DNA of 64,000 nucleotides from an uncultured Chloroflexia bacterium (lineage in GTDB: Bacteria > Chloroflexota > Ktedonobacteria > Ktedonobacterales > Ktedonobacteraceae): contig CAVSWA010000001.1 of NCBI GenBank assembly GCA_963731605.1, positions 439,242 through 503,241 on the forward strand, given 5' to 3'. Below are positions 15,345 through 43,554 of this stretch, piece by piece. The stretch's first letter is position 1, and every line of letters starts with the position of its first letter. The notes under the pieces were generated by a model. The model made no database searches. It was not told where the DNA came from and worked only from the letters and a program-made list of their open reading frames with translations. Both the position numbers and the translations under genes were made by a program.

Positions 15345-15389
15345 AATAGATGATATTACACACAGAGATGTTGTGTAATATCATCTATT
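15345..15389. terminator. Perfect 18-bp inverted repeat with a 9-nt loop, between or overlapping the convergent TPR and jetD 3' ends; candidate bidirectional terminator
   Basis: AATAGATGATATTACACA (15345-15362), loop CAGAGATGT, then TGTGTAATATCATCTATT (15372-15389). Most of the structure (from the jetD stop at 15356-15358 onward) lies inside jetD, and the 3' arm encodes its last codons. Confidence 0.5.
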
Positions 15390-16759
15390 AGAAAGTGCGT
15401 AATGCCCTCTTGATAGGCCCACATGGCTTTCTCTTTCATCACGGCAACCAGGGGCGCGAAGATTTCGGGCAGTGTGTCAAGCAATGCCAGGTCGGTGGCG
15501 GAAGCCGGAATGCCGCCCTGCCGCAGGATGGAGCTATAGGTATCGCGGTCGAAACGCCAGAGGTGACAGCGACCAGGGTATCGCGCCAGCATGTAGGCGG
15601 CAATTTGCAGTCCCTTGATGTCGAAGTCTCCACTGTAACACAGGGTGTAGGTGGGAGACGCGCTTAACAACAGGTTGAGCAGGGTCAGGGCCGCGACGCT
15701 GGGCCAACCGGATGTACAAACGAGCGTCGGAGGCTCATTCTCTGCTTGCGCGCTGGCGATGATTTCTTCAAATACCTGGGGATTTTCCACGATATAGATG
15801 ACCGTGCTGCTCGATGTCACACTTTTCCATGCCTGTAGCTGCCGCAAAGGAAGCAACATGACACGCGCGCCCGCCGCGTGTGGCATAGGGTCAGGGGTGC
15901 CATCGAGATAGAGTGCGCTGGCCAGGTTGTACGCGGCAACGTTGGTTGAGATGGTGTCAACCAGTAGCCCGGCATTCCTGTACAGCAAGAGTTCATGTTC
16001 CCGGTCTCCCATTACGTTTTCGAGTGCGACAGTCGCGTATTCGAGAGTATCCGTTATGTTTTCGAGTGCGACCGCGAGGGTCGCCCCTACAATATTCGAA
16101 TCGGCCAGGGCGAGTAAGAAGAGACGCCCTGCGGCTCTCCCCGTATTGAGCATATGGGGGTCGCCGCTGGTGCGCTGGGCGAAAAGGGCCAGGCGTTCGG
16201 GCGTATCGGGCCGGGGCAGTTGATCGAGCAAACCTGCGATGTAGGCGACCAGTTTCAGTTGTCTTTGCTGCTCTTCCAGAGGGGCATTTTTATAACGCGC
16301 GTAAAGCCATAGTTCTCCGTGCGAGCCATGCTCTAACCAGTGTCGCCCATGCGCGTTAGGTGGTAGGTGCGCGATGAGCGATGCCAGCGCCGCGCGAAAA
16401 TCTGACTGGCGTTGTGAATGTTGCGCCTGTCGTTCTACCCGTGTCACTAATGCGCGGTCGGGATAGTAAGCGCGTAACAGATCTGGCAAAGTGCAGTTGA
16501 AGCTGTGGAGTAAAGCCTTTTCGACATCTCCCAGTTTTACCCTGATGTTGATATCAGCGTAGAGGGGTTTGCCGAGAAAGCTGGCGATTTCGCGCCGTTC
16601 GTCAGAGGTGCAGTCTGGTAGGGTGATCTGACCGCGCACCTGGCTTTCTTCTATGTATTTCTCGTAAAGTTTCATTCCCAGGCGCGATAAACCGGGCCGG
16701 TGGAAAAACATGGCGGCCTTGTGCGCGTTCTGATGTGCCGGGTCTGGCAGGTTGCTCAC
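15356..16759 (-). CDS. jetD: Wadjet JetD-type nuclease subunit (TIGR02679 / DUF2399-like, Toprim-like C-terminus)
   Basis: 467 aa with a GTG start 19 nt after the jetC stop. C-terminal VIYIVENPQVFEE ... LCYSGDFDIKGLQIA supplies the acidic E and DxD residues of a Toprim-like fold. It is the fourth gene of the cassette. Confidence 0.8.
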   Translation of the reverse strand: MSNLPDPAHQNAHKAAMFFHRPGLSRLGMKLYEKYIEESQVRGQITLPDCTSDERREIASFLGKPLYADINIRVKLGDVEKALLHSFNCTLPDLLRAYYPDRALVTRVERQAQHSQRQSDFRAALASLIAHLPPNAHGRHWLEHGSHGELWLYARYKNAPLEEQQRQLKLVAYIAGLLDQLPRPDTPERLALFAQRTSGDPHMLNTGRAAGRLFLLALADSNIVGATLAVALENITDTLEYATVALENVMGDREHELLLYRNAGLLVDTISTNVAAYNLASALYLDGTPDPMPHAAGARVMLLPLRQLQAWKSVTSSSTVIYIVENPQVFEEIIASAQAENEPPTLVCTSGWPSVAALTLLNLLLSASPTYTLCYSGDFDIKGLQIAAYMLARYPGRCHLWRFDRDTYSSILRQGGIPASATDLALLDTLPEIFAPLVAVMKEKAMWAYQEGITHFLIDDITQHLCV

Positions 16760-16778
16760 TCTTACTTCCGTCCTTTGA

Positions 16779-18833
16779 TTAGAGCGCTTTGCTATCGCTC
16801 CAGAACGAAGCTGATGCAGTTGCGATGGGTGAACCTTTTTCGTGGATCATCAGGTAGCGGGCGCAGGCGGGAATTTTCGCGCCGGTGCCGCTGATTTGCG
16901 GCCCGGTCATGATCCACTGGAAGTCTTGCGAGACGAGAAATTCCATGATGCGTTGCGTATTGGCTACGCTGACTTTATCAAAGGCCTCGTCAAGGGCGAG
17001 CAGGCGGGGCGCGCCGGGAGCTGCGCTGCGATAGAGCGCGCCGAGGGCGGCGAAAAGCGGGACATAGAGCGCGAAAAGCTGCTCCGCGCCACTGCGCGTA
17101 CCGGCCACGCGATCCGTCAGACGCTGGCGCTGCCCGCCGGGCTGGGAGACCAGCACTTCGAATTGGAACCACTCGCGATAGTCAAAGACCTGTTCCAGGG
17201 CATCCAGGAAGTTCATATCGGCACGCTCCTGCTGCCGCAGGCGCACAGCATCGATTTCCTGGCGGAAAGCGTTCATCAAGGTTTCGGTCTCTTCCGCGGT
17301 TAAAGCCTGGGTTGGTTTGCGCAGCAGGCGGTAGTGCTGCGCAAGATGGCTGCCCGGCTTGTTCAGGTCGTATTCGGTTTGTGGTTTCCATTGTAGCGCG
17401 TAGTGTTCGCCGATCATGGGCAGGCCGCTCAACACCTTGTTAATTTGCTGCACCCATTCTTCTGCCTCGAAGATAGCGCTGCGGATGGCTTCGGCGATTT
17501 CGTGCAGCAGGAAATCCTCAAACAGCTTCGTCTCTTCCTGATTGAGCAGCATTTGTTGCATCTTAATGCGTTCGCTCAACAGTTCAAGCAGTTCGATAGC
17601 CCGGCTTTTGTTTTCGTTCAGGAAAAGCGCCAGTCCCTGCTCGTCCAGGTCTGGCCCGTATTCCAAAAGTAGAGGCTGCTCGCGATTGAAAACGCGCATA
17701 ACGGTATTAAATGCCTCGCGATAGGCTTCATTCAACTGTTCCCTGCGCGCCGGAATATCCGCCTCGCGCAGTGTTTCTCCCAGCACTCGCCGTGCGGCAC
17801 CGAGATAGTGGCCCTCCAACATGTGCTGGTGCGCGGCGATTAGTTCTTCGACTGGATATGCGGCCAGTAAATTCGCAAATTGCGTTCTCTTTTCGCCTGC
17901 TAACTGCATAGCACCTTGCAGGCGTTCATCTACTTCGACTAATTGCTCTGTGATAGTTTCGGCACGCTGGTTTGCCAGGCTGTAGGTGACGCGCGCGTTG
18001 TTCAATTCTTTGTTGACCGTCTCGCTGCGCTGGCGTAAGGTCAGTAATCGCTCGCTTAGCTCGCTGGCGTCGGTTGTTTCCGCGATATGTTGTAGTTCGT
18101 TTTCCTCGGCGCGTGCTGAAATGGCCTGCGAGCGCAAACGCTCGTACAAGTTTGCCACGTTTGCCTCGTTGGCGGTTGCCTGTTGCTGCGCTTCGCGAGC
18201 GCTATGACACTCGTCCCAGGTGTGATTGAGGCTGCTTAGTTGCGTTTGTAGCGAACGGGCCGAGTTTTGTAACTGGATTACTCCCAGTAATGCACCCTGG
18301 ACGCGCTGCCGCTCGCTGGCAAATGCGGCGTTGCCGTTGCTTTCTCGCTCTAGTTGGACCACCAGCGAATTGAAACGCTGCCACGCCGCCTGTGTCTGGA
18401 GGCGCGCTTTTTGATAGGTGTTCTGGATGCTTTCCAACGTGACCCTGATCTGCGCCAGTTCGGCAAACACAGGCTCGATGCCACTGGCTGCCAACGCCTT
18501 GCGTACATGCGCGGTTTGCTCCTCTATGCTGGCGAGCTGCCCTTCGTGGAGTTCAATCTGCCGGGCCAGCACAGTCAGCGTTTCAGCAAGTTGCGCTTGA
18601 CTTTGCTGGATCGCTGCGAGTTCGCGTTGTTGCGCGCGCAGGCGGGTGGTTTTGCCGATGCAGCGGGCTGTGCCGCCGCTCGCATATCCGCTCAATATAC
18701 CATGCGTCCAGGCGCCATCTTGTTCAAACAGCACACCGGCATAGTCATTGTAAGGGCGTGGGTGTGGGTGTGGGTGTGGGTGTGGGCTGGGGTAGATGCG
18801 GGGCGGGGACCCTTGCGGTCGCCCTCTCGCCAT
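16779..18833 (-). CDS. jetC: Wadjet JetC SMC-like ATPase, C-terminal half (coiled coil plus C-terminal head)
   Basis: Long Q/E/A/L/R-rich coiled coil. This is followed by TRSGAEQLFALYVPLF (signature-like) and PRLLALDEAFDKV (Walker B). The ORF-track ATG at 18833 lies inside the inserted repeat. Genuine JetC sequence resumes around 18750 (YNDYAGVLFEQDGAWTHG). Confidence 0.85.
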   Translation of the reverse strand: MARGRPQGSPPRIYPSPHPHPHPHPRPYNDYAGVLFEQDGAWTHGILSGYASGGTARCIGKTTRLRAQQRELAAIQQSQAQLAETLTVLARQIELHEGQLASIEEQTAHVRKALAASGIEPVFAELAQIRVTLESIQNTYQKARLQTQAAWQRFNSLVVQLERESNGNAAFASERQRVQGALLGVIQLQNSARSLQTQLSSLNHTWDECHSAREAQQQATANEANVANLYERLRSQAISARAEENELQHIAETTDASELSERLLTLRQRSETVNKELNNARVTYSLANQRAETITEQLVEVDERLQGAMQLAGEKRTQFANLLAAYPVEELIAAHQHMLEGHYLGAARRVLGETLREADIPARREQLNEAYREAFNTVMRVFNREQPLLLEYGPDLDEQGLALFLNENKSRAIELLELLSERIKMQQMLLNQEETKLFEDFLLHEIAEAIRSAIFEAEEWVQQINKVLSGLPMIGEHYALQWKPQTEYDLNKPGSHLAQHYRLLRKPTQALTAEETETLMNAFRQEIDAVRLRQQERADMNFLDALEQVFDYREWFQFEVLVSQPGGQRQRLTDRVAGTRSGAEQLFALYVPLFAALGALYRSAAPGAPRLLALDEAFDKVSVANTQRIMEFLVSQDFQWIMTGPQISGTGAKIPACARYLMIHEKGSPIATASASFWSDSKAL

Positions 18834-21273
18834 CTAACGCGTTATCACTCGCCGGGGCCATTAGCAGCGCGTTGATAACCGGTTCCCAATTCACATTGCC
18901 TGCTTCAGGCAGAGCATTGATCGACTCATCAAAGCGCAATCCGTAGAAACTGGGTGTAGTCTGTTGCGCGGGGTTCGATCCAGCTTGATCGAAAATTGCT
19001 TTGATGCTTTCGAAATCTACACGGCGGTCGCTTAAACCCTCGCTTGCCAGCAGCGCATCGGCACGGTCGGCCTGAGCAGGCGAGACAACCAGCGCGTCCA
19101 GTAAGCCGGCATCTTCCAGCATATGTTCTATGCGGCCAGCCTCCGCGCTTTCGCAATCGATTTCAGGAATGAAATCGAGCAGCATGTAGAGTGGCAGCGC
19201 GGTAATGCCATGTTCTGCCAGTTTTGCGCGAGCAAGCGTGTGGCGTGCTTGACGCGCTGGTGTGAACTCGGGTTCTGCGCGTTTCTGTTCAAAAAGCGCT
19301 GTGACTTCATCAAAGGCGCGTTGCACTCCGCCGCGCTCAACCTGAAAATCGTTGAGACGCGCCTGCGCCTCTTGCGCCGATTGGTGTAGTAGGCGTTCGA
19401 TGCTTTCGATTGTCTGGCGATACTGCTCCAGCGAGCGGGCGCATTGTTCGATGACGCGAGCGGGTTGAGCTTCATCTTCTGCCAAATCATCTTGTAGCAG
19501 CAACGATGTATGCATTGGCTGGACAACTTCCGGCGGCGCGAATTGTTCCAGCGTGCTGTTGAGCGAGGCAAGGGCATCATAAAAGCGATCGCGAGCGGAT
19601 TGGAAACGGCGGCGCGTCTCGTCCAATTCCTGAAAGCGCGTTGTCTCATATTCGCGCGCGTTTTGCACCTGCGCGTCCAGTTTTTCGCGCTCTTGATGTA
19701 ACGTCTCAAGCCGCTGTAACCAGGCGATGCGCTCCTCTGACAACATGCCAGACAGGGCGGCGATGTTCTGGTGAACAGATGCCGGGTAGGGTGATGTTAA
19801 TGAAATGGAGGCGAGCAAACGCTGCGTCTCTTGTAGTTGGAGGGCGGCTACTTCCCACTGGCTTTCCTCTATAGCGATGCGGCCCAGTTCTCGTGTATGC
19901 GCCCCGCTCTCGGTTTTGATGTTTTCAAAGCGCGCCAGTTGGCGTTGCAGGCTTTCCGTGCTGGCCTGTTTTGATCGACGGGCGGCAGCGAGGCTTTGTT
20001 CTTGCAGTTGCGCCTGCTCATGCGCTTCGCGAGCGCGTTCGCGCGCGGCAGCCAGTTGTTTTGCGGCTTGCAGCCCCTCGCTTGATTCCAGCGTGGTAAT
20101 CTGTTTGCTCACCTCGTATTGTTCCACCTGCAACGTTTGCGTCAGAGATTCTGCAAGTGAACGTTCCTGTTCTGCGGCTTGCAGTTCTTTGCGCAGCTTC
20201 GTGACGCGATGTTGCGCGCTATCTTCGCTCGCTTGCGCGCCGGTATACTCGCAGGCTGCCAGTTGCGCCCTGCTCATCGCCAATCGCTGCTGGGCGCGAT
20301 GCAGGCGGTCAGCAGCGCCGTAGGCCTCCTGGCTGCGCTCTTTCTCGATCTGGATAGCGTCGATGCGTTCTATGGTACCGATCACATGCGAGGTGGTTTC
20401 CCCGGAAATTTTGCGCAGCGATTGTTTGAGGTAGTCATGCACACGCGAAAAGCTTAACTCGCTGCTCAGGTTCGGGCGGCGCAGCACCAGTAAGAGGTTG
20501 ATGAGTTTCTGGAATTCTTTCACATCGTTGAAGCCGAACAGGTAGCGCGCCACCTGGCGTTCGTACTCGGCCTGGGTTTCACAGATAATGCCATGCCCCT
20601 CCATCTGTTGCTTGAAGCGTGGGTGATCGAAAGCATGTTTTTCGTGCCTGCTGCCCACTTCATAGATGGTGTGCATCTCGTGACCGAAGCGCGAGCCATC
20701 GGTAATCAGGAAGCGTAGCGGGCGGATGCGCTCGCTGGCATTGATATTGCCCGCCAGGCTGACGCCGATGGTCAGGAAACGCGCCTTCTCTCGCTCGCCG
20801 TTTTCCCAGAGGCGCCGTAGTTCGGGGGTGAAAGGCGGGGTATCCGCGTCGCACCACTCGAACTCCAGCGCGATGTAGGAGGTGCGCCGCTCGTGGTTAT
20901 AGGGCGTGGCGGATTCGCTGCCACCCAGGATATAGTACTCAATGTGGCGTTCGCGCCCGCCAAAGGTATCGAGGCGATGCGGGCGGATGTCGCCGTCCAG
21001 AGCCAGGGGCAGCGCCGCCGTCAGGACGGTAGATTTGCCACTGGCATTTTCGCCTGCCAGGAAGAGTCGCCCGTGTGGTATCTCAAATTCTTGCGTGCCG
21101 TAAAGCCAGAAGTTGGTCAACAGGATGCGGCGCAGGCGGTAGCCGTGTGGCCCTCCGGCCTCGCCCTGTAACACTTCGACAAACATTTCAAGCTGGCGCG
21201 CCAGTCGCTCCTCAGCCGTTAGCCCATCTTGCGCTTCAGGCCATTGCGTCAAACTATCGAGTGTGTACTGCAT
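18745..21273 (-). CDS. jetC: Wadjet JetC SMC-like ATPase, N-terminal half (N-terminal head plus coiled coil)
   Basis: LTNFWLYGTQEFEIPHGRLFLAGENASGKSTVL provides the Walker A motif, followed by several hundred residues of coiled-coil-type sequence. The ORF ends in the repeat insertion (..PTPTPTPTPLQ stop at 18745-18747). Confidence 0.85.
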   Translation of the reverse strand: MQYTLDSLTQWPEAQDGLTAEERLARQLEMFVEVLQGEAGGPHGYRLRRILLTNFWLYGTQEFEIPHGRLFLAGENASGKSTVLTAALPLALDGDIRPHRLDTFGGRERHIEYYILGGSESATPYNHERRTSYIALEFEWCDADTPPFTPELRRLWENGEREKARFLTIGVSLAGNINASERIRPLRFLITDGSRFGHEMHTIYEVGSRHEKHAFDHPRFKQQMEGHGIICETQAEYERQVARYLFGFNDVKEFQKLINLLLVLRRPNLSSELSFSRVHDYLKQSLRKISGETTSHVIGTIERIDAIQIEKERSQEAYGAADRLHRAQQRLAMSRAQLAACEYTGAQASEDSAQHRVTKLRKELQAAEQERSLAESLTQTLQVEQYEVSKQITTLESSEGLQAAKQLAAARERAREAHEQAQLQEQSLAAARRSKQASTESLQRQLARFENIKTESGAHTRELGRIAIEESQWEVAALQLQETQRLLASISLTSPYPASVHQNIAALSGMLSEERIAWLQRLETLHQEREKLDAQVQNAREYETTRFQELDETRRRFQSARDRFYDALASLNSTLEQFAPPEVVQPMHTSLLLQDDLAEDEAQPARVIEQCARSLEQYRQTIESIERLLHQSAQEAQARLNDFQVERGGVQRAFDEVTALFEQKRAEPEFTPARQARHTLARAKLAEHGITALPLYMLLDFIPEIDCESAEAGRIEHMLEDAGLLDALVVSPAQADRADALLASEGLSDRRVDFESIKAIFDQAGSNPAQQTTPSFYGLRFDESINALPEAGNVNWEPVINALLMAPASDNALDGERATARVPAPHLPQPTPTPTPTPTPLQ
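18754..18828. repeat. G-rich REP-like element (family 2) plus a (GTGGGT)n hexanucleotide microsatellite, inserted inside jetC
   Basis: GTGGGT occurs 4 times plus GTGGGC (18758-18787). This is followed by TGGGGTAGATGCGGGGCGGGGACCCTTGCGGTCGCCCTCTC, which shares GGGGTAGATGCGGGG.CGGG...CCTTG.G with the copies at 5520-5578. It is translated as PTPTPTP in one frame and PHPHPHP in another. Confidence 0.7.
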
Positions 21274-21311
21274 GAATATTTCCCTTTTTCAGCCGCGCAT
21301 CTTCTGGCCGG

Positions 21312-22751
21312 CTATGCCTGCTCTTCCTCGTTCCAACCCGGCAAGGCTGCGGTTGTGGCTTTACGCGTTTCTTTTTTCTTCGCTTTCGACTCCTGGGCTG
21401 CGAGATCGTAGGCGACACGATAGCGCGCGGCGGTCGGCAAGATCAGTATGTTGCCCTTGCTATCGGGTCCGCGTAGCAGCCCGATCTGGCGCATCTTTTT
21501 GTACACTTCGTTCAGCAGGCTGCGCACGCTGCGGGTGCGCGCATCGCTGCCCCAGTTGTCGCCGTAGCGCTCGCGCAATGAATAGAAGAGCGCGTTCATG
21601 TCCTGGGTGGTAGCGTGCAGGCAGCCATAGCTATCGGGTGCAGGCCACGCGCCTGCCTGCACCTGTTCTCGCATGGCGGTACAGAGCAACATAGCAATCT
21701 GGTCAATCGCGCCGAAAGGGGTGAGGCTGGTAACAGGGCCGGAAGACATGCCGCTGGCGCGTGTCACACAGGCGTAATCGCGTTTGACATCCAGTTGCCA
21801 GCCAAAGGTTTCGAGTAGTTCGTTGGCTATTACTTCAGCGTGTATGACCAGTTCAGCGAAAGCTTCGGCGTCGTCAAACCGAAATAATGCCGGGCCGAGC
21901 AGTAATGCGCGCCACGCTCGCGATAATGGGCGGATATGCGCGGCGTATAAGCTTTCCCCTGCCTGTAATAACGTGGGCTGGAGCGCTTGCTCTTTCTCGC
22001 TATTGTTGAGGCGATCTGCAACGACGGCCAGCAACTGGGGATTGAAGGCGGAAACAAGCGAGCGGATCACATCTGTAAATTCGTACAACACATCAGCGCC
22101 GGAAGCCTGCTCGACCCATTGGCGCGTTTGCCCATCGACGAGGCGCAGGCCGCCCAGTTCTTCGAGATAAAGCAGGGCGCGCTGGATGCTATAGCGGTCG
22201 GCCTGCCTGCGAAAATCGAAGGCCGCTTCTTCGTCAAGTGCTGCGAGCGATTGTTCCTGTATCTGTTCCGCCAGTTGGGAGAGCAGAAACTGCTGGTCGT
22301 TGCCGCGCCCGCTCAACTGGCGCGTCTCGGCATACCAGAGAATCCAGGTCAGACAGGCGAAGTCTCCCGGCTCTTTCAGGCGATCGTAGAGATAGCCCGG
22401 CGTGACCGCGCTGAGCTGGCGCACCAGGCGAATCACCGTTGCGCTGCGCTGAATGCGCCAGCCGGTATGCAGGTCATGCCAGTTCTGTAAGGCGAAATAG
22501 TGGCGATTCACCAGCCGGAATAGCTCGGACTGCTGCGACAGGATGATTTCGCGTTCCATCAGGCCGGTGTGCGCTTTCAACAACTCGGCTGTGCTGGTGC
22601 GCTGGCGGGCGAGCGCGGCGCGATTGACGTATCCATTGTTCGATGCCTGCGACGCATCCGCAATGTCTGAAGATATGGCTGTTTCGGGCAAATATGCCAT
22701 CTCAGCATTGCCTGAAGATGACTTCGCCAGCATTTCATGCTCTTCGATCAT
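21312..22751 (-). CDS. jetB: Wadjet JetB-type subunit (TIGR02678 / DUF2398-like)
   Basis: 479 aa. Its start overlaps the jetA stop (ATGA at 22748-22751). The position and the pattern ELFRLVNRHYFALQNWHDLHTGWRIQRSATVIRLV fit the second gene of the TIGR02677-80 cassette. Confidence 0.7.
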   Translation of the reverse strand: MIEEHEMLAKSSSGNAEMAYLPETAISSDIADASQASNNGYVNRAALARQRTSTAELLKAHTGLMEREIILSQQSELFRLVNRHYFALQNWHDLHTGWRIQRSATVIRLVRQLSAVTPGYLYDRLKEPGDFACLTWILWYAETRQLSGRGNDQQFLLSQLAEQIQEQSLAALDEEAAFDFRRQADRYSIQRALLYLEELGGLRLVDGQTRQWVEQASGADVLYEFTDVIRSLVSAFNPQLLAVVADRLNNSEKEQALQPTLLQAGESLYAAHIRPLSRAWRALLLGPALFRFDDAEAFAELVIHAEVIANELLETFGWQLDVKRDYACVTRASGMSSGPVTSLTPFGAIDQIAMLLCTAMREQVQAGAWPAPDSYGCLHATTQDMNALFYSLRERYGDNWGSDARTRSVRSLLNEVYKKMRQIGLLRGPDSKGNILILPTAARYRVAYDLAAQESKAKKKETRKATTAALPGWNEEEQA

Positions 22752-24427
22752 GCCTGTTCCTCCTCTCCACTGTCACGCTGCAAGCGGTAGCGTGGTAAAA
22801 GCAGTATTCCATCGGGCGCGCGCAGGATGGTGTAGCTCTGCTCGTCATAGTTGAGTAATGTAATTGTGGAGCCATCGGGTGCGCGGTACTGGTGGCGTGT
22901 ATCGCCCAGGCATCCATCGATGACGGTCAACAAAATCGCGCGCTCGTCAGCCGTGATGTGTTTGAGCCCGCCAAGATCGAGCAGCGCCGTAGCGAAGAGG
23001 TTGGCGAAACGCAAGGTTTCTTGTTGCAGTTTTTCCTCGTACTGTTTGATGAGTTCGCGCGCGCCATCGTTGCGCACAATCACCGGGTCTTCCAGGCTGT
23101 GTTCCCCGCGATAGGAACGACTGACCGGGCGCAAACGCAGGCTGGCGGTAGGCGGTTGCTGCCATACGTTGGCTTCGGCGACATCATGGCGGGCGCTGGC
23201 TCTGCCCGCCAGGCTCTCCGGCAGATGCACGGGAAGCATGTTGGCAAAGGCCAGGCTGAAAAGCTGTTGGGCGGTATCGCCGTCTCTCGCCTGGAGCAAT
23301 TGCATGGCCAGGGTATGCAGGTTGGCGGCATAGTTGGCGTTGGGACGCGCCGAGGCTGCCAGCACGGAGGCGCGGCGCACAACTTTATCTACCTCAGCCA
23401 GGGCGTTGCGGCGGAAGGAATTGGCATTTTTTCCCAGCGCAAACCAGTTCATCAGCGCGTTCAACTGGTTATCGGCCTCCTGAAGCAGCTCCTCCTGGGA
23501 TGATCTATTTTCCAGGGTTGGCGATGGCGGCTCAAGGTGTTCTGCCACGATCTTGATGAGGCGATCTTTCTTGCCTGTCTCGATCCATTCTGCCAGCAAT
23601 GCGCGTATGCGGCGGCTGTAAAGTGTGAGCGATTGCGCGAAACCGTGTACGTAAGCCACAACTGCCGCTTTATAGGCCTGGTAGGCGTCGAAATCGGGTC
23701 GTCCCTGTTGCGCGGCCTGCATCATATTGGCCAGGTATTGCGCGGCCTCGCGCGCCATGGTATTCCATATTTCGAAAGCGCGCTGCCATTGCTCGGTCAT
23801 GGCGCGCCCGTGCTCGGGGGAGTATTCTTCCGGTAGGTTACGTAAATCTTCGTCCAGCGATTGCAGGGAATTCCACAGGTGCGGCAAGTCTCCCTGGCGC
23901 AGCGCGCCTTTGCCGGTGTTGGCTCTCATCTGTTCATCGAGGAAAGTTTCGATGGCGATGGCTTCCGGCGTGGCCTGGTAGAGCAGGGCCGGGGCAAGGA
24001 AACTGGTGATGGATGTGGCGCGGCTGGAATCGTAAATGGTAGTTATATTGCCCCATTCTTTGAGGGCTGCCAGGTCGTTCTGGCATTGTTCCAGCGTGTA
24101 TTCTGCTTCTAATGTGTCGCGTATCTCGTCGCGCACTTCTTGCGCGGTCAACTGGTAGCGATACAACTCACGATGGGAGTGGAAAAAGTAGCGCATAATG
24201 ACGCGATACCAGCGAATGCGATTGGAAGCGACCAGGTAGCTGAAAATCGGCAGGCGGTCGGTGAGTTGGAAGACAGCAGATGTTGAGATGGGTTCGGGCA
24301 TTAGGTCCGCGCCGATCATGCGCGTTTCTGGCATGTTAAATGCGCGATGCTGGTCTTCATTTACTACAGCCGAATTATCTGGCCGGTATCCATTGTGCAT
24401 CAACTGGCGCTCTCCGAGGCTTTTCAT
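22748..24427 (-). CDS. jetA: Wadjet JetA-type subunit (TIGR02677 / DUF2397-like)
   Basis: 559 aa and first gene of the cassette. FSYLVASNRIRWYRVIMRYFF...QLTAQEVRDEI...DLAALKEWGNI matches my memory of the TIGR02677 N-terminal pattern. Confidence 0.7.
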   Translation of the reverse strand: MKSLGERQLMHNGYRPDNSAVVNEDQHRAFNMPETRMIGADLMPEPISTSAVFQLTDRLPIFSYLVASNRIRWYRVIMRYFFHSHRELYRYQLTAQEVRDEIRDTLEAEYTLEQCQNDLAALKEWGNITTIYDSSRATSITSFLAPALLYQATPEAIAIETFLDEQMRANTGKGALRQGDLPHLWNSLQSLDEDLRNLPEEYSPEHGRAMTEQWQRAFEIWNTMAREAAQYLANMMQAAQQGRPDFDAYQAYKAAVVAYVHGFAQSLTLYSRRIRALLAEWIETGKKDRLIKIVAEHLEPPSPTLENRSSQEELLQEADNQLNALMNWFALGKNANSFRRNALAEVDKVVRRASVLAASARPNANYAANLHTLAMQLLQARDGDTAQQLFSLAFANMLPVHLPESLAGRASARHDVAEANVWQQPPTASLRLRPVSRSYRGEHSLEDPVIVRNDGARELIKQYEEKLQQETLRFANLFATALLDLGGLKHITADERAILLTVIDGCLGDTRHQYRAPDGSTITLLNYDEQSYTILRAPDGILLLPRYRLQRDSGEEEQA

Positions 24428-40197: not shown

Positions 40198-41292
40198 ATG
40201 AAATCCACTATTCTTATACTGACAACTCATACCGGTGGCGGGCATTTGAACCTCGCGAAGTCTCTCAAAGAGATGCTCGGAACTCAATATGAAGTGGTGA
40301 TTGATGATCCACAGTCCAGGCTCGTTGAGAAGGGGTATACGTTGACGAGCCGACATTTTTTGCAGTATTTAAGCTGGCTATATACCTTCACAGACAATGT
40401 ACGAGCCTCGTTATGGTTGCAACGGGCGCTTACCCTTGTGGGCCACAGGCGATTGCTCGCTATCATAAAGCATATCCGTCCGCAGCTTATCATTACAACC
40501 CATGCGATGATTGCCTATACGACGGCGCGGGCTATTGAACACCTGGCAGACCCAGTCCCGTTGGTCTTTCAGCTTACCGACCTGGGGCAGGTGCATATGA
40601 GCTGGTTTAGCGAGAAACGAGCTGATGCCTACCTCGCTCCAACACGCGAAATCTTCGACCAGGCCCTGGCCGAGGGTATCGATAAGCATCGCCTCTATCT
40701 TACCGGAAGGCCGGTGCGGCGTCAGTTTTCAGAAATCTCTACCGGCGGCAAAAGCGAAACGCTGGCTGCTCTGGGGTTGGATCCCTCAGTTTTCACCATC
40801 TTTCTCCAGGGAGGCGCGAAAGGGTCGGCTGGAGTTGATGGGACTATTGAGAGCCTGTTAAACGCGGGTATACCGGCGCAAATATTGCTGGCGACAGGCA
40901 ATAATAAGAGCATGGCCGCGCGTTTTGCCGGCAACAAACAGGTATACACTCTTCCTTTTACTGAAAGCATTGCACCTTACATGGCCGCAGCCGATGTGAT
41001 AGCCGGAAAAGCCGGGGCAAGCTTCATATCCGAAGCGTTCACGTTGGAAAAACCGTTCCTCGTCACTTCCTATATTCCAGGCCAGGAGCTCGCCAATCTG
41101 CAATTCATCGAGCGACATAAGCTTGGTTGGGTGTGCCTGGAACCGACCTCCGTGCAAGAACTGCTGGTGCAGGTAGCACGCAGCCCGGAGCTGATTGCCG
41201 AAAAGTTGAGCAGCATTCGGGCTTATAAAGCCTGGAATAGGCAGGCGAACGCGGCTATTTGTCCAATTATCGACCGCTTACTTTCTCAATAA
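40198..41292 (+). CDS. GT28-family glycosyltransferase (MGDG-synthase/UgtP-like diacylglycerol glycosyltransferase)
   Basis: N-terminal ILILTTHTGGGHLNLAKSL. The C-terminal half (ADVIAGKAGASFISEA) is typical of the MGDG synthase/MurG-like fold. Confidence 0.75.
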   Translation: MKSTILILTTHTGGGHLNLAKSLKEMLGTQYEVVIDDPQSRLVEKGYTLTSRHFLQYLSWLYTFTDNVRASLWLQRALTLVGHRRLLAIIKHIRPQLIITTHAMIAYTTARAIEHLADPVPLVFQLTDLGQVHMSWFSEKRADAYLAPTREIFDQALAEGIDKHRLYLTGRPVRRQFSEISTGGKSETLAALGLDPSVFTIFLQGGAKGSAGVDGTIESLLNAGIPAQILLATGNNKSMAARFAGNKQVYTLPFTESIAPYMAAADVIAGKAGASFISEAFTLEKPFLVTSYIPGQELANLQFIERHKLGWVCLEPTSVQELLVQVARSPELIAEKLSSIRAYKAWNRQANAAICPIIDRLLSQ

Positions 41293-41298
41293 GATGAG

Positions 41299-43554
41299 CT
41301 AACTATGGCCCTGGTAATCAAGGGCATTTTTCGTCACGCGCCAGTTGACGGTGGGTAAAATCAGGTTCTCGTCGATGTGTTCGCGGTGTTGGATAGCAAG
41401 ATCGATCAGCGATGCGAGTACTGTTCCGTTCAGCAGATGCGGCTCGAGTCCCAGTTCGATAAGACGGGTATGAGAAGCATGATAATAGTGCTGTTCGGCT
41501 TCAACACGCGGATTCGGGTGGAAGCGAATCTGAGCCTCTAGCCCGAAGCGTTTGCTTTGATCGACGACCATCTCTGCCAGTTGAATGAGCGAGAATTGTT
41601 CGGTGAACTGGTTGAAAACGCGGTACTCTCCTTCTGCAGGCGGCGCGGTGATTGCCAGTTCGATGCACCTGATGGTATCGCGCAAATTGATGTAGCCGCG
41701 AGTTTGCTGGCCTTCGCCATAGACGCTGAGAGGGTAGCCGGCGGCGGCCTGGACGCAGAAGCGGTTGAGCGCGGTGCCGTAGATCTGGTCGTAGTCGAAG
41801 CGGGTCGCCAGGCGTACATCTTGCTGGGTCTGCTCGGTCTCTACGCCATAGACGATGCCCTGATTCAGGTCGGTAGCGCGCAGCCCCCAGATTTTGCAAC
41901 AAAACATGATGTTATGGCTATCATGCACTTTGGAGTTGCCGCACCATACAGGCTTGCCGTTGCGTCGTACCAGAATAATGCCATCGCCTGGAACTTCACA
42001 GCAATAAACCATGCCAGCGTAATCTTCTATCCAGTCATTAGGATCATCTGGTAGTTGGTTAACCTGTAAAACGGTAGTTTTTGTGATATTTACACGATAC
42101 TCTCTATGTTTTGTCCAGGCTGCACTATCGATCCGATCAAGGTGAGAGACGTTGGCAGAAAGCCCCAGTTTTAATGCCATTTCCTGCACATCGTCGGCGA
42201 GTTGCTTCGATGATGTATAGTAGCGACCATACTGGCGATCGCGATTCATCCATATTCCGTCACCTGACATCATAGCCTTGAAAAGAATGCCTAACTGTCG
42301 CTGCGATAGGCCTAGTAGTTCACGGGGTATATGTTTGGTGATGCTATGGCCGAGCTGGGCGAGATAAACAGCTAGCTGAGTGCAGAACAGGTAATGGCAT
42401 TCCTGATCGCGATCTTTAAATAAATAGATGCTATGTGTGCATCCCAGGGCAGCGGCTATATTATCGAAGACAGCATTTACCTCCTCGGAGTTAGCGCCAA
42501 TTTTTTGGGTAATATAGATGCGGTTTGGCGCTTTTTTGCGCCACTCTCCATCGACACTTCCTTCTGCGAGATACCATCCCAGAAACCGGAGCCAATCATC
42601 CATCGGTAATTCGATTGCCGGTATTGGAACCTGATATTTCCATAGAGAATAATAAGCAGGCAAGGTAAATGTTTCACGCTCCTCACCCTCCCACTCTGAG
42701 GTAATGTGGTAGCGGTTATACTTACCGAGAATGTCTCTTGCCTCTTCAAATCGTAGTGCCTCAGTGCCGTCGCGACGTTTATATGAAGTCAGCATGCGAT
42801 GGTTGGGTGTTACGCAAAGATCAATGCGGCGTTGCTCAAGGCAGTACATGGGGCCCTCGTAGAGATATGTTGTGCGTGCTGTTGGTTTAGCATAAACAAT
42901 ATGAGGATCGTCAAGCTGTCTTGTGGCTAACTCATCTTCATCTGTTAGTTCATTGAAGAGTTTCCAGCCGACTCGTGTCAACACTTCGGTTTGGTCATCA
43001 TAACATAAATGATAGAACGATCCTGGTTGTTTTGGATAGGGAAGTGTATCAGTGCGGCCTTTGTGGTGGATTTCGATAAAGCCTTCTTCGATGTCGATAT
43101 TGGGCGTACCGTATTCGCCCATAGTGCCGAGTTTCACCAGGTGGCAGTGCGGTGCGAACTCTTTGATGGCGTAGAGGACGTTAAGCGTGCCAATGACGTT
43201 GTTTGTTTGCGTGTAGACGGCGTGTTGGCGATCAATCATGGAATAGGGCGCGGAACGCTGTTCGGCGAAGTGTACGACTGCTTCGGGTTGGAAAGCTTGA
43301 AAGACAGAAGCGAGTGTTTCGTATTCCAGCGTGTCACCGGTATAGACCTGTATGTTGTGCCCAGAGATTTCATGCCATGCCGCGACCCGTTCGTATATGC
43401 TCTCGATGGGTGTCAGGCTGTTGAAGCCGCGTTCGAGGTCGAAGTGCCTGCGCGATAGATTATCGAATATGGCGACATCGTGTCCTTTGCTGGAAAGGTA
43501 GAGCGATTGCGGCCAGCCCAGGTAGCCGTCACCCCCCAGTACGAGAATACGCAT
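41299..43554 (-). CDS. sqdB: UDP-sulfoquinovose synthase (SQD1/SqdB) interrupted by an intein
   Basis: The exteins (183 + 211 aa) resemble plant and cyanobacterial SQD1, as far as I recall that sequence, along their whole length: LGGDGYLGWP, FAEQRSAPYSMIDR, VKLGTMGEYGTPNIDIEEG, TDTLPYPKQPGSFYHL|SKVHDSHNI, TDLNQG, FGTALNRFCVQAA, RVFNQFTEQFS. GGAGG precedes the ATG at 43554. Confidence 0.9.
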   Translation of the reverse strand: MRILVLGGDGYLGWPQSLYLSSKGHDVAIFDNLSRRHFDLERGFNSLTPIESIYERVAAWHEISGHNIQVYTGDTLEYETLASVFQAFQPEAVVHFAEQRSAPYSMIDRQHAVYTQTNNVIGTLNVLYAIKEFAPHCHLVKLGTMGEYGTPNIDIEEGFIEIHHKGRTDTLPYPKQPGSFYHLCYDDQTEVLTRVGWKLFNELTDEDELATRQLDDPHIVYAKPTARTTYLYEGPMYCLEQRRIDLCVTPNHRMLTSYKRRDGTEALRFEEARDILGKYNRYHITSEWEGEERETFTLPAYYSLWKYQVPIPAIELPMDDWLRFLGWYLAEGSVDGEWRKKAPNRIYITQKIGANSEEVNAVFDNIAAALGCTHSIYLFKDRDQECHYLFCTQLAVYLAQLGHSITKHIPRELLGLSQRQLGILFKAMMSGDGIWMNRDRQYGRYYTSSKQLADDVQEMALKLGLSANVSHLDRIDSAAWTKHREYRVNITKTTVLQVNQLPDDPNDWIEDYAGMVYCCEVPGDGIILVRRNGKPVWCGNSKVHDSHNIMFCCKIWGLRATDLNQGIVYGVETEQTQQDVRLATRFDYDQIYGTALNRFCVQAAAGYPLSVYGEGQQTRGYINLRDTIRCIELAITAPPAEGEYRVFNQFTEQFSLIQLAEMVVDQSKRFGLEAQIRFHPNPRVEAEQHYYHASHTRLIELGLEPHLLNGTVLASLIDLAIQHREHIDENLILPTVNWRVTKNALDYQGHS
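41935..43005 (-). mobile_element. 357-aa intein with a LAGLIDADG homing-endonuclease domain, inserted in the SqdB YxxxK motif
   Basis: Starts with Cys (CYDDQTEVLT; TGT at 43005-43003). Block B is VTPNH. The LAGLIDADG motifs are LRFLGWYLAEGSVDG and LGILFKAMMSGDGIW. It ends ...GIILVRRNGKPVWCGN (AAC at 41937-41935), followed by the +1 Ser of SKVHD. The region is visibly more AT-rich than the exteins. Confidence 0.85.

Follow-up and report, generated by a model that had tools for sequence, protein, structure and literature searches.

How can sqdB, the gene for UDP-sulfoquinovose synthase, encode a working enzyme when 357 additional codons separate the two halves of its catalytic motif? This question is raised by a stretch of 64,000 nucleotides (the window) from an uncultured Chloroflexia bacterium of the family Ktedonobacteraceae (contig CAVSWA010000001.1, positions 439,242 to 503,241), in which positions 41299-43554 of the reverse strand form a single uninterrupted frame of 2,256 nt, encoding a precursor of 751 amino acids (aa) plus a stop codon. 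The precursor consists of an N-terminal portion of 183 aa that ends in PGSFYHL (N-extein, 43006-43554), an insert of 357 aa that runs from CYDDQTEV to VWCGN (41935-43005), and a carboxyl-terminal portion of 211 aa that begins with SKVHDSHNI (C-extein, 41302-41934). We conclude, with a probability of roughly 85%, that the insert is a genuine class 1 intein, whose Hint domain is interrupted by a LAGLIDADG endonuclease with two motifs, that it sits within the YxxxK motif of sqdB, and that this copy probably arrived by horizontal transfer (homing or recombination) from a donor not yet sampled, after the split from the closest sampled intein-less relatives. A preliminary description, made from the sequence alone, had already proposed a full-size LAGLIDADG intein at this place. 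The coordinates it gave, 41935-43005, are exact, as the frame and both junctions agree, and its reading of the exteins as ...PGSFYHL|SKVHDSHNI... holds; the motifs, the protein family, the predicted fold, and the alignment of the host protein all support the proposal itself.

The host protein is recognizable from either side of the insert, as both extein halves match the NCBIfam model UDPsulfquin_syn. When joined, the 183 and 211 residues give a spliced SqdB of 394 aa, which the preliminary description had called collinear with plant SQD1. Residues 2-382 of the spliced protein aligned to residues 3-383 of the Arabidopsis SQD1 chain (PDB 1qrr) without a gap (381 residues, E 1.1e-171, 574 bits), and the joining of the exteins restores SFYHLSKVHDSHNI, which is identical in SQD1. 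The insertion point lies between Leu183 and Ser184, so that the first three residues of the catalytic Y-H-L|S-K belong to the N-extein and the last two to the C-extein. Because of the one-residue offset of the ungapped alignment, Tyr181 and Lys185 of spliced SqdB correspond to Tyr182 and Lys186 of SQD1. With Thr145, these make up the short-chain dehydrogenase/reductase (SDR) catalytic triad of SQD1, as given in PMC4388408, which cites Mulichak 1999; all three residues are conserved in the spliced protein. By the same alignment, the N-extein carries the Rossmann motif GxxGxxG, the Thr144 region (GTMGEYG), and the codon of catalytic Tyr181 (43012-43014), while the C-extein opens with the +1 Ser (TCC, 41932-41934) and the catalytic Lys (41929-41931). 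The NCBIfam equivalog NF041015 was by far the top-scoring family for the spliced protein and covered its full length, with a score of 482.4 bits that lies below the curated cut-off of 575. Near-identical homologues carry the JGI label UDP-sulfoquinovose synthase. Within the 64-kb window, tblastn found no second copy of the intein or of the exteins, and an Rfam scan of the window gave no matches.

The insert carries the motifs of a bifunctional intein, and these are strongly conserved in an alignment of 74 homologues, on which all column counts given here are based. Residue 1 is a Cys (43003-43005), the N-terminal splicing nucleophile of block A, which is found in 73 of the 74 family members. 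Block B (T66-P-N-H69, 42799-42810) shows the TxxH signature, with Thr66 conserved in 73/74 and His69 in 74/74. Splicing blocks F and G, delimited by the alignment columns, comprise residues 329-357 (YAGMVYCCEVPGDGIILVRRNGKPVWCGN, 41935-42021); they include Cys335 at position 4 of block F (F:4) and the terminal Asn357 (41935-41937, 73/74). The +1 residue that follows is Ser in the window copy, and Ser (51), Cys (13), or Thr (8) across the 74 family members. Between the splicing blocks, a LAGLIDADG endonuclease domain spans approximately residues 131-300 (42106-42615). Its first motif, LGWYLAEGSV (residues 142-151, 42553-42582), supplies the acidic residue E148, which is Glu in 70 and Asp in 3 of the 74 sequences, and its second, MMSGDGIW (residues 245-252, 42250-42273), supplies D249, conserved in 73/74. 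All of the elements that had been pointed out earlier, namely Cys1, VTPNH (T66..H69), both LAGLIDADG motifs, and VWCGN followed by the +1 Ser, are present.

Among the Pfam models, LAGLIDADG_3 matched the insert with 31.2 bits (cut-off 22.5), and the other Pfam and NCBIfam matches were to Hom_end, weakly, and to models of intein-bearing DnaB and GyrA. None of the Pfam Intein_splicing or Hint models matched at E <= 1, and fold and profile searches were therefore applied. An AlphaFold2 model of the intein, built from the 74-member alignment, reached a pLDDT of 95 and a pTM of 0.93. In this predicted layout, beta-rich N- and C-terminal parts enclose an alpha/beta middle, with helices at residues 135-148 and 235-249. 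The top 16 Foldseek matches of the model in the PDB were all intein-endonucleases (TliVMA, PhoVMA, PI-SceI, PI-PfuI, and PI-PkoII; E 8e-19 to 2e-8). The middle domain, which also contains the LAGLIDADG_3 match, resembled I-DmoI (TMt ~0.7) and I-SceI, while the Hint part resembled Hedgehog autoprocessing domains. A sequence search with the family profile recovered TliVMA (3e-17) and PI-PkoII (1e-16), and also the inteins of KlbA and RecA. The LAGLIDADG domain is thus recognized by Pfam above its cut-off, and the Hint fold by the AlphaFold2 model and its Foldseek matches.

The structurally characterized relatives, i.e., the archaeal and yeast VMA inteins (TliVMA, 7qsu and 7qss; PhoVMA, 7qst; PI-SceI, 1vde), PI-PfuI (1dq3), and PI-PkoII (2cw7), have the same architecture of a Hint domain with a double LAGLIDADG endonuclease (Foldseek E 8e-19 to 1e-10, TMq 0.57-0.67), and share Cys1, TxxH, and the terminal Asn with the sqdB intein, but are only 10-17% identical to it. 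They also differ in their hosts, which are ATPases or polymerases rather than an enzyme of lipid head-group synthesis. Closer relatives are abundant. The insert alone retrieved 870 homologues in a word-indexed search, and a full scan of 1.84 billion representative proteins yielded 9,630 clusters (defined at 50% identity) at E <= 0.001, of which 1,256 at E <= 1e-30. In nearly all of these clusters, the matching segment lies within a host protein unrelated to SqdB; the hosts of the family include ThyX, MCM, DNA methylases, gp37-like proteins, and RNA polymerase. This family, recognizable as CYDxxTE...VRRNGKxxWCGN in archaea, bacteria, and viruses, has the same conserved residues, including the penultimate Gly and the F:4 Cys, at 30-47% full-length identity. 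Within it, the sqdB copies form a group of their own, with 66-81% identity to one another and no more than ~45% to other members, and with Gly at the position of the block F His.

The penultimate residue had been singled out as unusual, as it is Gly356 in place of the customary His. The Gly is indeed present, but it is no oddity of this copy: 72 of the 74 family members have Gly here, within a conserved carboxyl-terminal tail that reads ...VRRNGKxxW(C/S)GN. Since it is the norm across the family, the penultimate Gly is not to be read as a defect. This is a point of difference from the VMA inteins, PI-PfuI, and PI-PkoII, which have His at this position, and the sqdB clade differs from them further in that the block F His is missing as well: the corresponding column, assigned by its spacing after F:4 and hence by inference, holds His in 46/74 family members and Gly in the sqdB clade. 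Both of the histidines that usually assist Asn cyclization are therefore absent from the sqdB-clade intein. Inteins without the penultimate His do splice (Chen, Benner & Perler 2000, and the Ssp DnaE intein, as cited in PMC4031507); like the sqdB intein, they lack the block G His and retain Asn and the +1 nucleophile, but their splicing was tested biochemically, whereas that of the sqdB intein is a prediction.

Cys335 at F:4, which is conserved as Cys in 71/74 family members, raises the matter of the splicing class. With the intein as a single query, the only match in the PDB was the class 3 intein AceL NrdHF (E 0.005, improving to 5e-10 with the family profile). Membership of class 3 was considered and rejected on account of the conserved Cys1, and because class 1 inteins, too, often have a Cys at F:4. 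A variant of this idea is that Cys335 attacks the N-terminal junction first, instead of or besides Cys1. Although the near-invariance of Cys335 and the AceL NrdHF match would fit such a route, class 3 inteins have no Cys1 or Ser1 nucleophile, and among inteins at large Cys ranks second in frequency at F:4 (PMC4031507), while Cys1 is found in 73/74 members here; we regard this route as very improbable. Given the conserved Cys1, the class 1 pathway is the simplest interpretation. Class 3 inteins are further marked by a Trp in block B and a penultimate Thr. The residues at these positions in the sqdB intein, Met71 and Gly356, likewise speak against a class 3-like route.

Inteins typically sit at catalytic motifs, and sqdB alleles both with and without an insertion at YHL|SK were found when relatives were surveyed. 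Four of the occupied alleles have an intact open reading frame (ORF). These are in a Chloroflexia metagenome-assembled genome (MAG) (L001; 81% aa identity to the window intein), in a Ktedonobacterales MAG (L003; 75%), in a representative protein of 750 aa (P0245; 79%), and in the cyanobacterium Argonema antarcticum (L002; 66-69%). Empty sites prevail among the closest relatives of the host protein. The best 120 homologues of spliced SqdB, many of them named Ktedonobacteraceae, are 79-96% identical to it, and 119 of these are intein-free proteins of 389-416 aa with an uninterrupted YHLSK. The closest empty allele (P0125/L032) shows 95-96% identity in both exteins, with a synonymous divergence (dS) of 0.15-0.19.

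Argonema antarcticum is a cultured organism with an intact sqdB intein (L002, 3392-7595), which would make it a practical organism for splicing and homing tests. Downstream of its sqdB lies an ORF of 370 aa whose product, judged by eye from its sequence, looks like a GT4/SqdX-type glycosyltransferase.

By the mechanism that we propose, the 751-aa precursor would first be translated as a whole, after which Cys1 would form a thioester at the N-terminal junction. Attack of Ser+1 on this thioester would yield a branched intermediate, cyclization of Asn357 would release the intein, and an O-to-N shift would then create the Leu-Ser peptide bond of an active 394-aa SqdB. The unspliced precursor should be inactive, because the catalytic Tyr and Lys lie 357 residues apart in it. 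At the DNA level, the endonuclease would cut intein-less sqdB at the highly conserved coding sequence for ...FYHL|SKVHD..., and recombinational repair would copy the intein into the cut allele (homing).

Selection on the precursor was estimated from the ratio of nonsynonymous to synonymous divergence (dN/dS). For the intein, the comparison of the window with L001 gave 0.063, with saturated dS; the exteins gave 0.07-0.18 overall and 0.13-0.18 relative to the intein-less L032. All three parts of the precursor are thus under strong purifying selection, which supports splicing indirectly. If the insertion did not splice, sqdB would be inactivated and the locus an incipient pseudogene, possibly backed up by another copy of sqdB, which may lie beyond the 64-kb window. 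The loss of both assisting histidines and the truncations or frameshifts in several related intein-bearing alleles would agree with this. Against it stand the 2.25-kb frame, which has stayed open here and in four further lineages although synonymous sites are saturated, the strong purifying selection on all three parts, the presence of all nucleophiles, and the splicing of inteins without the penultimate His cited above, and we consider a non-splicing insertion highly unlikely.

For the second activity, DNA cleavage, the support is again indirect and consists of the sporadic distribution of the intein, a cluster of nucleotide differences at the junction, and a switch in the codon of the +1 Ser. 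Relative to L032, 31 nucleotide differences occur in the N-extein of the window, of which 12 lie 9-54 nt before the junction, in a junction-proximal stretch (43006-43063) that resembles a co-conversion tract. In a scan with windows of 60 nt, the one ending at the junction contained 14 of 66 differences, a clustering that was reached in 3 of 20,000 permutations preserving codon position. The +1 Ser is encoded by TCC, TCT, TCA, and TCT in four intein-bearing alleles and by AGC in both sequenced empty alleles, and a switch between TCN and AGC requires two substitutions. These two features are suggestive of co-conversion of donor flanks during homing, but could equally mark the empty alleles as poor targets of the endonuclease.

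The intein-less SqdB proteins of Ktedonobacteraceae (P0125-P0244, around SQD1 residues 178-190) are unusually variable at the insertion flanks for an active site, with F/M/I/W/L/V at position -4, G/S/N/A at -6, V/T/A/I at +3, and H/F/Y at +4; all intein-bearing alleles read PGSFYHL|SKVHDSHN. The variable flanks of the empty alleles could reflect escape from recognition by the endonuclease.

Many occupied alleles of Ktedonobacteraceae look damaged. P0213 (678 aa), the sole long protein among the best 120 homologues, keeps all splicing blocks, but its first endonuclease lobe has lost ~70 aa and its second motif is degraded to SGNDMEM, a state that the homing cycle predicts after fixation. Apparent damage of other kinds was seen in P0005/P0028, which lie on the same 163-kb contig and have a frameshift inside the endonuclease, in P0122/P0123, with a stop just after block B and a small deletion, in P0004, with a deletion in the C-extein and VWCVN, and in L004 (3889-5272), where the second half of the intein is joined to an out-of-frame C-extein-like stretch. 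P0002 is also among the damaged-looking sqdB-intein alleles of Ktedonobacteraceae.

Such alleles lend some weight to the idea that the window intein, too, has reached a late phase of the homing cycle, in which it still splices while its endonuclease is inactive and it is inherited vertically or moved by ordinary recombination only. The degenerate or disrupted copies P0213 and P0005/P0028 would fit this, as would the comparison of the window with L001 and L003, in which the intein has diverged about as far (75-81% aa identity, with saturated dS) as the exteins (72-84%), as expected under long co-residence. The window copy, however, has kept both acidic residues and the full two-lobed fold, its low dN/dS extends over the whole intein, its closest relatives are empty, and a co-conversion-like tract adjoins its junction. 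An inactive endonuclease is therefore possible, but in our view rather unlikely, and we retain the reading of an intein whose endonuclease is probably functional.

The preliminary description had taken the AT-richness of the intein as a sign of recent invasion. The difference in composition is real. The GC content is 0.469 in the intein and 0.525 and 0.549 in the exteins, and at third codon positions (GC3) it is 0.445 compared with 0.61 and 0.66. This GC3 lies below that of every long ORF in the window (n = 36, mean 0.645, standard deviation 0.064, minimum 0.519) and below that of each of 101 in-frame windows of intein length (minimum 0.501). The orthologous inteins show the same deficit relative to their exteins (0.451 versus 0.67-0.70 in L001, and 0.406 versus 0.52-0.54 in L003), so that AT-richness alone is no proof of recency. 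The GC3 deficit is a property of the intein lineage and no clock for the invasion of the window. Horizontal gain is better supported by the empty closest relatives, the cluster of differences at the junction, and the codon switch at the +1 Ser. On a larger scale, the window and Argonema are 69% identical in the intein, and 64% and 55.5% in the exteins. As inteins normally evolve faster than their hosts, the greater conservation of the intein suggests cross-phylum transfer after divergence of the host genes.

A number of points weigh against our conclusion of a horizontally gained, splicing-competent class 1 intein. Autocatalytic splicing and site-specific DNA cleavage are both inferred, as are the direction and timing of transfer and the co-conversion at the junction, the Pfam splicing models are silent on the insert, and neither of the two assisting histidines is there. 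As for the gain of the intein, its low GC3 does not date the invasion, since the deficit is common to orthologous inteins with saturated synonymous sites. In the junction tract, the nucleotide sequence of the window is not closer to L001, L003, or L002, so that the donor is unsampled, and the tract could reflect a locally variable region, given that positions -4, -6, +3, and +4 vary in empty alleles. Finally, the truncated or frameshifted alleles come from MAGs and could represent either assembly and sequencing errors or real decay, which would imply that sqdB copies with the intein are frequently lost.

With the catalytic dyad split, the activity of SqdB is strictly dependent on splicing, and the intein might serve the host as a conditional switch. 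Splicing could, for instance, be controlled by a disulfide among Cys1, Cys334/335, and Cys355 that responds to redox state and so gates sulfolipid synthesis post-translationally. A conserved cluster of cysteines at the splice site (C1, C335, and C355) would fit this. The same Cys pattern, however, occurs family-wide in unrelated hosts, and the intein is dispensable, being absent from all but one of the 120 closest SqdB proteins, which makes a switch of this kind improbable.

Beyond the sqdB alleles at YHL|SK, related inteins were observed at three active-site positions in SqdB/Agl3-family proteins of diverse bacteria and archaea. Site a (KLG|T) directly precedes the catalytic Thr and is occupied in P0336, P0330, P0272, P0020, and P0085. 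Site b (GEYG|TP) is occupied in P0265, P0294, P0007, P0008, and P0013. Site c (YHx|SK) is occupied in the more distant SqdB-like proteins P0282, P0295, P0302, P0308, and P0013, the last of which contains two inteins, at sites b and c. When 334 full-length inteins were ranked by identity on a hidden Markov model alignment, SqdB-family hosts accounted for 11 of the 13 inteins closest to that of the window, compared with 16 of the other 333 overall, although the margin in identity is small (41-45% versus 39-41%). This ranking hints at movement of inteins between sites within the SqdB gene family. A bolder extension would make the SqdB/Agl3 family an unrecognized intein hot-spot, in which one lineage, spread over Chloroflexota, Cyanobacteria, and archaea, occupies all three sites, and in which the sqdB clade at site c perhaps performs a non-canonical Asn cyclization (e.g., by means of the invariant Arg347-Arg348-Asn-Gly) or serves as a conditional, for instance redox-gated, sulfolipid switch; we consider this combination speculative and unlikely.

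An intein of the same family was also observed in a different extended-SDR family of sugar epimerases, at the equivalent place in YxxxK (SPYGC|...SGN|SKGAG; P0014, P0021, and P0023). The broad intein family extends to viruses as well, with at least 80 viral contigs (IMG/VR, L034-L113), including giant-virus MAG bins, that carry members with 24-36% full-length identity. The scan of viral contigs yielded no vector for the sqdB clade, and no viral copy exceeded 36% full-length identity.

The preliminary description had not known of sqdB as a catalogued intein host. Our literature searches found no paper describing an intein in sqdB/SQD1 or in Ktedonobacteria, and sqdB does not appear as a host in the bacterial and archaeal survey text of Novikova et al. 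2016 (PMC4760082) or in the halobacterial allele table of Soucy et al. 2014 (PMC4071816). Many such sequences are nonetheless already public as epimerase/dehydratase entries. A comparable host is that of the 'udp' intein allele of Halobacteria and M. jannaschii (PMC4071816), UDP-glucose 6-dehydrogenase, which is likewise a sugar-nucleotide enzyme but belongs to another enzyme family and carries its intein at another site. As stated in PMC4760082, most catalogued inteins reside in proteins of replication, repair, and nucleotide metabolism. An apparently mobile and well-preserved intein in the catalytic dyad of a membrane-lipid enzyme therefore widens the list of hosts. InBase also contains the entries 'Ter Ndse-1/-2', in a nucleoside diphosphate-sugar epimerase of Trichodesmium, which may concern the same gene or site.

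In mechanism and architecture, the sqdB intein is a textbook bifunctional intein, and it leaves the general understanding of inteins unchanged; its insertion allele is apparently undescribed. Its interest lies in part in the natural homing system that it offers, with intact, endonuclease-degenerate, and empty alleles in close relatives, a co-conversion-like tract, and orthologues in two phyla. It also bears on annotation: the capacity for sulfolipid synthesis may be overlooked in genomes of Ktedonobacteria and cyanobacteria, because the 750-aa proteins are labelled only 'NAD-dependent epimerase/dehydratase' and are sometimes called as 2-3 fragments. As a compact intein without the penultimate His, it may be of some interest as a part for protein engineering.

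Directly downstream of sqdB, in convergent orientation, lies a gene for a glycosyltransferase of family 28 (GT28) resembling monogalactosyldiacylglycerol (MGDG) synthase (40198-41292, forward strand). An MGDG_synth/GT28 gene also adjoins sqdB in L001, L032, and L033, and its product is a candidate glycolipid or sulfolipid synthase, whose position fits a glycolipid locus.

Elsewhere in the window, a complete Wadjet type II anti-plasmid operon (JetA2-JetB2-JetC2-JetD2) was observed on the reverse strand at 15356-24427. Its JetC is split over two overlapping ORFs, one at 18745-21273 that covers profile positions ~6-650 and one at 16779-18833 that covers positions ~700-1348, a split that points to a frameshift, or to an error in sequencing, around 18745-18833.

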